From the UHGV virus genome UHGV-0134932: 49,858 nucleotides of DNA; one strand, 5' to 3'. The position numbers and the translations under genes are program-made. The stretch comes from a virus. The notes beneath the pieces were generated by a model. It did not search any database. It was given only the letters and a program-made list of their open reading frames with translations, and was not told the DNA's origin. Below are positions 34,280 through 36,562 of this stretch, one piece after another (the first letter of the stretch is position 1; each line of letters starts with the position of its first letter).

Positions 34280-34307
34280 ATTACACTAATAAATTTATTA
34301 GAGCAAT
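34280..34307. promoter_or_regulatory. Overlapping pair of C1 operators (Op72-like) at the head of the tRNA/ban operon
   Basis: Perfect 17/17 AAATTTATTAGAGCAAT at 34291-34307 overlapping a 15/17 copy in opposite orientation at 34280-34296. Confidence 0.85.
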
Positions 34308-36562
34308 ATACCTAAGACGTCATGAGCAACACCTCGAGTGTCCCCCTTACAAGACACAGAACGTCTGGCAAAAAGAGGTTCCACTCTGAAGCCATTGTCA
34401 TGATAAAGCTCTCTGATGTTTGGCGCGCCACTGTTAGTAATGAGAACCTTTGCACCTCGGCGATGAGCATCCGTCAACAGAGACACCAGGCGTTTTTGCT
34501 CTTCAAACTTAAAGTCATGACCGGAATAGTTCGTGAATCCCTCTGTATTTGGAAGCGGTTCATACGGCGGATCACAGAAGATGACATCTCCTTCTCCGGC
34601 AGCTTCAATCACCGCAGCAAAATCACCACATACAAACTCAGAACGCCCTTCCGCACCGAGGAAGGCTTCCATCTCCTGTAATGGGAAATACGGAGTTTTA
34701 TACTTCCCATAACCGACATTGAACTCACCGGCCTGGTTGTAACGCGTCAATCCGTTAAAACAATGTCGGTTCAGGAACAAAAACGCCGCTGCGCGATGTA
34801 AATCATCATAGACTTGTTTGTTAAACGCATTCCGTACTGCCAGGTATCCTTCCTGTGTGTTGTAGTCCTGGAAAAACCGATGCGCCAGTGTGATAAGTGA
34901 ATGCGCCTCGCGTTGCAGAGTCTTGTAAAAGTTAATCAGGTCAGCATTCACATCATTTAGCAGATTTTCCTGGTATCCGGCATTCGTGAAGACAGCTCCG
35001 CCACCGACAAAAGGTTCGATCAGGCGCTTCCCTTCTGGCAAATAGCGAAAGATTTGTTCCAGAACACCAAATTTTCCACCAGCCCATTTGAATATGGACC
35101 GTTCGAATTCTGCCGCTGGTTTAACTTTTCGCTCTTTTGTTTCACTTCCTTCTTTCTGCCGACATACGGCCTTAGTAATCCGATCGCCAATCCAGCGCAT
35201 TACTGGTATTGCCATACTATTGCCGATCGCTTTGTAACGCGGTCCGTCAGCTGCAAGCATCGCGGCCTCTTCTTCGCTTAAATCTGGATAGTGATTGTGC
35301 AGATATGCCAGTTCATCTGAATTAACTTTTTTACGCTTTTCCGTAGGGATCAACGTATGCCCATCAGGAAAACCTTGAAGTCTCTCACATTCGACAGGGG
35401 TAAGACGGCGGACAGCTACTTCTTCGTTTCTTACTTCATAGCAAACAGCAGTTGGATTTTGAGCCATTAGAGATGGTGAAGTATTCTTAGTTGCTGCATG
35501 TTGTGTACCACTCATACGCTCAGGAAAAGCCAATGTAACAAGATGCTCATGGCTTTCTTGCTCACGCGCCCGCAATGTACCATGCCCTTCTGACCAAAAA
35601 CCTGCTCCAGTGCTGCTAAAAACGGCAAGGTCAGTGGCATCTTTAAAGTCTCTTGCCTTTACTGTCGATGCGGTTTCATCGTCAATATATTCCCCAAATG
35701 CCGCCATCCTGAAACCGTTTACGGCTTTCGTCGATTTCATACCGGGGGACATGCCAGCGTGTAGGCATGGATTTAGGCTTTCGCCACTGATTGCAGCGCC
35801 ATTTGCAGTAATGGCGGAAGCGATTTCCTTCTTTTTTCGGCTCGGCGCAATATTCCGGCGCACGCCTTCGAACTCAAAAAGTACCGTTGCGGGATCGAGG
35901 TCTGTTCGAGCACTTGCGACAACAAACACGCGTCGGCGTCGTTGTGCCACTCCGAAGTATTGGGCATCAAGGATTCTCCAGGCCACCTTTCGCTGCGGTC
36001 CATAAATACAACCACACTGCGGCCACTTTGGAACATGGCAACCGGTTTTGCCATCCCACCGCCAGAACGCGTTGCTTTTTCCTGATTCAGGTCGATCACC
36101 TGGTTCAAATGGCACATCTTCTCCAGCCAATCCGGCAAGGAAACATCCGAAGGCGTTATCTGCCGATGACAAGACTCCTGGGACATTTTCCCAGACGATA
36201 ACGGCTGGTTTGAGAAATGACTCAGCCCGTTTGTCGTCAATTGCATTTGCAAGCTCCACATACTTTAAAGTTAGCGCGCCACGCTCATCATCAAGCCCAC
36301 CACGTAATCCCGCGATACTGAATGCCTGACAAGGTGTTCCCCCGACGAGCACATCAGGGGATTCGATTTCCCCAGCCAGGACTTTTTTGGCAAGTTTTGT
36401 CATGTCGCCAAGGTTGGCGACATGGGGCCAGCGGTGCGCAAGAACGGCAGATGGAAAAGACTCGATTTCAGCAAACCACACCGGACGCATACCCAACGGT
36501 TCCCAGGCAATACTCGCGGCTTCAATTCCACTGCAAACAGATCCATAGCACAGCTCTTTCAC
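34298..36562 (-). CDS. dmt: Dmt, fused DNA methyltransferase (N-terminal C5-cytosine MTase-like, C-terminal Dam-like N6-adenine MTase)
   Basis: 754 aa; [12 protein letters not shown] (PCQ) and ENVPG motifs N-terminally; [14 protein letters not shown] and DPPY motifs C-terminally. Confidence 0.88.

Follow-up and report, generated by a model that had tools for sequence, protein, structure and literature searches.

We found that the virus genome UHGV-0134932 (49,858 nucleotides; this whole stretch of DNA is called the window here) carries at 34298-36562, on the minus strand, the gene dmt of phage P1, which encodes a C5-cytosine methyltransferase-like half and a Dam-type N6-adenine methyltransferase half in a single polypeptide. 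The gene was identified as P1 dmt because its DNA matches P1 dmt (GenBank: AF234172, 66412-68676) from one end to the other at 97.6% identity, because the protein is 98% identical, and because the neighboring genes are the same. The window dmt DNA is similarly close to dmt or dam of other Punavirus phages. That the gene is the dmt of a P1-like (IncY) plasmid-prophage, with its Dam function, is almost certain in our judgment. The explanation taken as a whole also seems very probable, namely that a P1 dmt controlled by the C1 repressor provides a Dam half for the packaging site pac and a C5 half that we infer to be active.

The fusion itself had been described before, in a gene that is well known, and it is ordinary for a P1-like plasmid-prophage, so what we report is a rediscovery. 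It was already covered by the notes in the P1 and P7 GenBank records and by the PHROG profile phrog_116, a single profile of 779 positions that spans both halves. In the P1 record (AF234172), Dmt appears as a 'bifunctional DNA methyltransferase' that acts on N6 of adenine in GATC and 'perhaps' on C5 of cytosine, and the P7 record likewise has 'hypothetical bifunctional'. Since the gene is annotated in this way in the P1 record, finding it carries little weight as a discovery.

A sequence-only reading of the window had proposed that two methyltransferases are fused in one reading frame, citing short motifs of each, and had suggested domain-wise hidden Markov model searches as a check; it had not recognized the gene as P1 dmt. 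When these searches were run, each half scored above its curated cutoffs, and the matches exceed chance by far. The N-terminal part matched the Pfam C5 methyltransferase family PF00145 (E 5.5e-37, 128.3 bits against a cutoff of 22) and the NCBIfam dcm family TIGR00675 (121.8 bits against 100.65). The C-terminal part matched the D12 N6-adenine methyltransferase family PF02086 over residues 493-725 (E 2.9e-56, 191.5 bits against 22) and the dam family TIGR00571 (E 1.6e-73, 247.7 bits against 114.85). The frame is continuous over 754 amino acids, and every motif that had been cited is present: PCQ at 77-79, ENV at 125-127, KWAGGK at 492-497, FVGGGA at 518-523 and DPPY at 664-667. Catalytic motifs had been lost from neither half, and judged by them both halves look intact. 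The protein is identical to P1 Dmt (GenBank: AAQ14041) at 737 of 754 residues without a gap, and 15 of the 17 differences lie in the C5 half.

The Dam half and the pac site

The C-terminal 270 amino acids can be aligned with E. coli Dam over the whole length (2g1p, E 1.9e-57); DpnM and T4 Dam (1q0s) are further matches. The S-adenosylmethionine (SAM)-binding FVGGGA and the catalytic DPPY line up with their counterparts in E. coli Dam, and the GATC-contacting residues of 2g1p (K9, R95, N120, L122, R124 and Y138) have identical counterparts in the window. One amino acid difference from P1 lies in the Dam half (S723N). The ratio of nonsynonymous to synonymous polymorphism (pN/pS), calculated from eight P1-type alleles, was 0.05 for the Dam half, indicating strong purifying selection. 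The score against the E. coli Dam equivalog NF008152, 242.6 bits, was below the cutoff of 441, and for this reason the half is a Dam-family enzyme and not an ortholog of the host Dam.

The window also contains the GATC-dependent pac site that the sequence-only reading had expected this enzyme to serve. The TGATCR hexamers of the site form a group of three (8327-8355) and a group of four (8446-8485). A search of both strands for a three-hexamer pattern gave 7 matches, which overlap, where 0 were expected, and this stretch shares 98% identity with the part of P1 in which pacA, an IHF (integration host factor) site and the pac cleavage site are annotated. According to passages in three papers (PMC12707154; PMC11437467; PMC7253447), all of which cite Sternberg and Coulby 1990, P1 packaging needs methylation of the pac GATC sites by host Dam or by Dmt. 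The Dam/pac role is established for P1, and we have high confidence that near-identity of sequence carries it over to the window. The Dam half would methylate adenine in GATC, including the seven pac hexamers, upon which the pacase would cut pac and headful packaging would start. Methylation by Dmt would permit pac to be cut even in hosts that lack Dam or whose Dam cannot keep pace.

Upstream of cre, in the cra/lox region, three more hexamers (TGATCA) are tightly clustered at 2599-2620, and matches to the C1 operator lie near them at 2769-2785 and 2852-2868. In P1, Dam methylation is reported to control cre expression. The Dam half may act on this cluster too.

In principle, an internal late promoter or start could yield a shorter product with the Dam half only, which would supply most of the Dam activity, the fusion not being the main late form. 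The P7 GenBank record predicts such a promoter, LPdam2; the window differs from it at 2 of 19 bases (35310-35328), and an in-frame Met435 lies downstream. However, LPdam2 is a prediction only and the P1 annotation does not have it, and both mismatches of the window fall in the -22 element predicted for it. No Shine-Dalgarno sequence is evident before Met435, which is located within C5 motifs IX-X, and the reading frame is continuous through a conserved linker. A Dam-only product as the main source of the activity is thus quite improbable, and we take the fusion protein of 754 amino acids to be the form in which the Dam half acts.

The C5 half and its variable region

In the C5 half, motif I was found as CSGIEA (residues 10-15), motif IV as GGTPCQ, motif VI as ENV, motif VIII as QRRRR (207-211), motif IX at 385-399 and motif X as GNS (447-449). 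All six scored motifs are kept and align to M.HhaI in the right order, and motifs IV, VI, VIII, IX and X are invariant across the dmt alleles compared. Motif I reads CSGIEA and not the FxGxG of the SAM loop, and we considered whether this reflects decay of the motif. Among 1.84 billion representatives, searched exhaustively, 4,411 relatives were found at E <= 1e-30, and motifs were counted in the best 150 of them, which are 46-97% (mostly 50-70%) identical. CSGIEA was present in 124 of the 150. Decay was rejected on this ground, and because the form is kept so widely, we read CSGIEA as a signature of the subfamily. PCQ was found in 142 of these relatives and, interrupted by an intein, in 6 more; the counts for ENV, QxRxR and GN[SAG] were 148, 149 and 147.

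Constraint and predicted structure agree with a C5 methyltransferase. Over the same eight P1-type alleles, pN/pS came to 0.135 for motifs I-VIII and 0.18 for motifs IX-X, with 0.27 in the variable region; these values point to purifying selection on the C5 half. An AlphaFold model, for which 30 sequences were used, gave a predicted local distance difference test score (pLDDT) of ~85-96 for the catalytic core, and the top Foldseek matches were all C5 DNA methyltransferases: M.HhaI and M.HaeIII (E ~1e-10, probability 1.00), DNMT1 and DNMT3. The Foldseek matches include a DNA cytosine C5-carboxymethyltransferase (8yf3), from which it follows that the fold can be repurposed, and the C5-like half might have another chemistry or substrate, for example transfer of a non-methyl group or formation of 5-methylcytosine in RNA or tRNA, as by Dnmt2. 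Nevertheless, the best matches in both sequence and fold are ordinary DNA 5-methylcytosine methyltransferases (M.HhaI, M.HaeIII), the SAM-binding and DNA motifs (VIII, IX, X) are canonical, and nothing specific for another cofactor was seen. We consider a different chemistry most improbable and treat the half as a DNA cytosine methyltransferase.

The region between motifs VIII and IX differs greatly among alleles. It was found in four or more forms, unrelated or only partly related and differing widely in length (the P1/window type, the P7 type, a 710/718-amino acid type and a long 822-amino acid type), and the whole proteins are accordingly 672, 710/718, 754/762 or 822 amino acids long. The catalytic core that flanks this region is almost invariant among the alleles. 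Of the Dam half there are two forms, ~75% identical to each other, and because the variable-region and Dam-half modules assort independently, dmt is evidently a recombinational mosaic. Turnover limited to the recognition region would be expected for an enzyme whose specificity is selected, and it suggests that different dmt alleles should write different 5-methylcytosine motifs. Three blocks resembling 'T-L/V-x-A-R' can be read by eye in the variable region, and the differences between alleles go by blocks. We considered whether these are tandem recognition modules as in SPR and phi3T, and this idea was unsupported: Smith-Waterman scores between blocks were no higher than those of shuffled controls (best p = 0.06).

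The window and the laboratory reference differ at a residue next to the catalytic motif. P1 c1.100, the laboratory reference, has Trp74 (VLVWGTPCQ; codon 3220-3222 of the P1 dmt locus compared), and the window has Gly74 (VLVGGTPCQ; codon 36341-36343). VLVGGTPCQ was found in 118 of 120 close cluster representatives and in the seven other P1-type alleles. In 149 diverse relatives that could be scored, position 74 was Gly in 140, Ala in 8 and Cys in 1, and never a bulky residue. The laboratory P1 reference may therefore be a C5-impaired variant, and this could be why no C5 activity has been reported. Selection of G74W during growth on Mcr+ E. coli K-12 is no more than an inference of ours. The allele of the window, with Gly74 and no intein, suggests itself as better material for a test of C5 activity than laboratory P1 with Trp74.

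In related alleles an intein of 341 amino acids lies directly before the catalytic Cys78 (GGTP/CFTAGH...VVHN/CQAFS). It is carried by RCS47, by vB_EcoM-Ro157c2YLVW, where it occupies positions 1732-2754 of the dmt locus compared, by the P1 isolate OP279344 and by ~133 PLSDB plasmids (~27% of the related plasmids). The insertion matches the Hint, intein-splicing and LAGLIDADG homing-endonuclease families, and its splicing residues are intact: it starts with Cys and ends with HN, followed by the +1 Cys. The intein occurs in alleles whose variable region is of the P1 type and in others with the P7 type, and the same insertion site is occupied in 6 of the 150 distant relatives. The window reads GGTP-CQAFS without interruption, so that it is free of the intein and keeps the insertion site. 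Our literature search found no description of this dmt intein. Inteins typically occupy conserved active-site positions of functional proteins, and an intein at the catalytic Cys thus supports a functional C5 half.

Several points weigh against an active C5 half. It is under less stringent purifying selection than the Dam half (pN/pS 0.18 against 0.05). The variable region (residues 232-384) has a pLDDT of only 28-44, and since the Foldseek matches span only the catalytic core, no cytosine target was derivable from the structure. A literature search, which did not extend to the P1 genome paper (PMC523184), found no Dmt-made 5-methylcytosine and no target motif, and the only role it found documented for Dmt was the Dam/pac role; the P1 annotation itself says only 'perhaps' of cytosine. 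In addition, given G74W beside the catalytic Cys in the sequenced P1 c1.100 strains, the C5 half may be dispensable for laboratory growth. The lack of an activity report, the radical nature of G74W in the laboratory reference strains and the weaker constraint would all suit a C5-like half that is dead or vestigial and serves the Dam half as a module for DNA binding, folding or processivity, in which case Dmt would be a GATC methylase only.

On the other side, a dead half does not easily account for six catalytic motifs being kept here, in hundreds of alleles and in distant relatives, for pN/pS values well under 1, or for a canonical GGTPCQ in all but two of the 120 close alleles. Nor does it fit with intein-bearing alleles that keep their splicing residues at the catalytic Cys, or with a turnover limited to the target-recognition region. 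We regard a vestigial C5 half as unlikely, and the C5 half of the window allele as probably active. The N-terminal half would then be a C5-cytosine methyltransferase whose target is set by the allele-specific residues 232-384, and it would most likely mark the phage DNA against type II restriction enzymes of new hosts. The broad anti-restriction role proposed by the sequence-only reading is plausible.

These considerations can be joined in a scenario that we put forward tentatively, as possible but on balance doubtful: the C5 half is active in natural prophages, its target is swapped by recombination, the intein may promote this exchange, and the activity has gone unseen because G74W in laboratory P1 is inactivating and was possibly selected by growth on E. 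coli K-12, which as an Mcr+ host restricts 5-methylcytosine.

C1 control and the dmt neighborhood

A search with the 17-bp C1 operator consensus, allowing up to 3 mismatches, gave 13 sites in the window, where 0.23 were expected; they include those at 731, 2769, 2852, 5981, 18654, 24420, 34280, 34291 and 37813. The 13 dispersed sites appear to be the C1 regulon typical of P1. The site at 37813 is Odmt, and the 180 bp around it, including the -35 and -10 hexamers of the promoter Pdmt, are identical to P1. The methyltransferase gene had been supposed to be under C1 control, and this is supported because the operator and promoter are, base for base, the characterized P1 elements. In the lysogen, C1 bound to Odmt, which overlaps Pdmt, would hold the uhr-hrdC-dmt operon off, and upon induction or infection the Dmt protein of 754 amino acids would be made.

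As in P1, dmt is the third and last gene of the operon and is followed by Oban, which according to the P1 annotation controls the downstream ban operon, and by the genes for tRNA-Asn and tRNA-Thr. The hrdC gene overlaps uhr by 8 nucleotides and dmt by 4 nucleotides, consistent with translational coupling. The program-made open reading frame for hrdC (36559-37578) reaches to an upstream TTG and encodes 339 amino acids, and the gene annotated in P1 encodes 301. A further tRNA gene, with a CAT anticodon, was called Met by ARAGORN and is tRNA-Ile2 in the P1 annotation. Some relatives, for example Ro157c2YLVW, have an extra tRNA-Tyr gene between those for Asn and Thr. A partner restriction endonuclease was considered; the neighbors are only hrdC, uhr and tRNA genes, and the description of the enzyme as an orphan methyltransferase proved correct.

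IncY P1-like plasmids of E. coli match the wider window at ~99%. Of 5,426 complete E. coli genomes, 493 (~9%) have a homolog of dmt, and 497 of the 508 places are on plasmids; homologs were also found in 498 PLSDB plasmids. This distribution is of practical value, as these P1-like plasmids also spread resistance genes. Several NCBI records label this methyltransferase 'multidrug DMT transporter permease', which looks like an annotation error that has spread from the gene symbol dmt.

Table 1. Positions in the window of dmt, its parts and the associated sites and genes.
Feature	Position	Strand	Basis or remark
dmt coding sequence (754 amino acids and stop)	34298..36562	-	GTG start, single open reading frame; ortholog of phage P1 dmt
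C5-cytosine methyltransferase-like half, residues 1-466	35165..36562	-	Pfam and NCBIfam matches, M.HhaI motif alignment, AlphaFold and Foldseek
P77-C78-Q79 codons, catalytic Cys motif	36326..36334	-	intein insertion point in related plasmids; window intein-free
Variable target-recognition region, residues 232-384, P1-type allele	35411..35869	-	between motifs VIII and IX
Lys/Glu-rich linker, residues 467-489	35096..35164	-	between Pfam and NCBIfam domain envelopes; 0 substitutions against P1
Dam-type N6-adenine methyltransferase half, residues 490-754	34301..35095	-	PF02086, TIGR00571, alignment to E. coli Dam 2g1p
C1 operator Odmt (Op68)	37813-37829	-	upstream of uhr; 1 mismatch to consensus
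Promoter Pdmt together with the overlapping Odmt	37784..37829	-	-35 at 37808-37813, -10 at 37784-37789; annotated in P1
Divalent C1 operator Oban a/b	34280..34307		two sites; overlaps last dmt codons and stop, as in P1
pac packaging site inside pacA	8327..8485		3 + 4 TGATCR hexamers
hrdC (RdgC family), directly upstream of dmt	36559..37464	-	open reading frame; coordinates mapped from P1 annotation
uhr, first gene of the uhr-hrdC-dmt operon	37457..37741	-	open reading frame; P1 annotation; alignment
Three tRNA genes downstream of dmt	31956-32031, 33472-33547, 33550-33625	-	CAT anticodon, Thr(TGT), Asn(GTT)

Comparison with known systems

The closest known protein is P1 Dmt, which also has 754 amino acids, is 98% identical, has the same P1-type variable region and lacks the intein. 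The Ro157c2YLVW allele has the same exteins and, with the intein removed, is 98% identical to the window. P7 Dam (AAQ07538) and the dmt of SJ46 show the same fusion in the same operon, with a near-identical C5 core and Dam half. They have, however, 672 amino acids and a shorter, unrelated form between motifs VIII and IX, which implies another cytosine target.

Each half also resembles well-known single enzymes. Like E. coli Dam (2g1p), the Dam half of the window has KWAGGK, the FxGxG SAM loop and DPPY, but it is fused to a second enzyme and is controlled by a repressor instead of being constitutive. The C5 half has the fold of M.HhaI and M.HaeIII and the same motifs I, IV, VI, VIII, IX and X. 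It differs from them in being only ~15% identical, in its CSGIEA form of motif I, in a much longer variable region and in an insertion of 60 residues between motifs VI and VIII.

Natural fusions of adenine and cytosine methyltransferases are found in M.Alw26I and M.Esp3I of type IIS systems. Dmt differs from these in having no partner endonuclease, and its halves would recognize unrelated sites and not the two strands of one site. The multispecific C5 methyltransferases of Bacillus phages (SPR, phi3T), which are cited as an anti-restriction strategy (PMC12707154), carry more than one specificity in a single polypeptide, as Dmt probably does.

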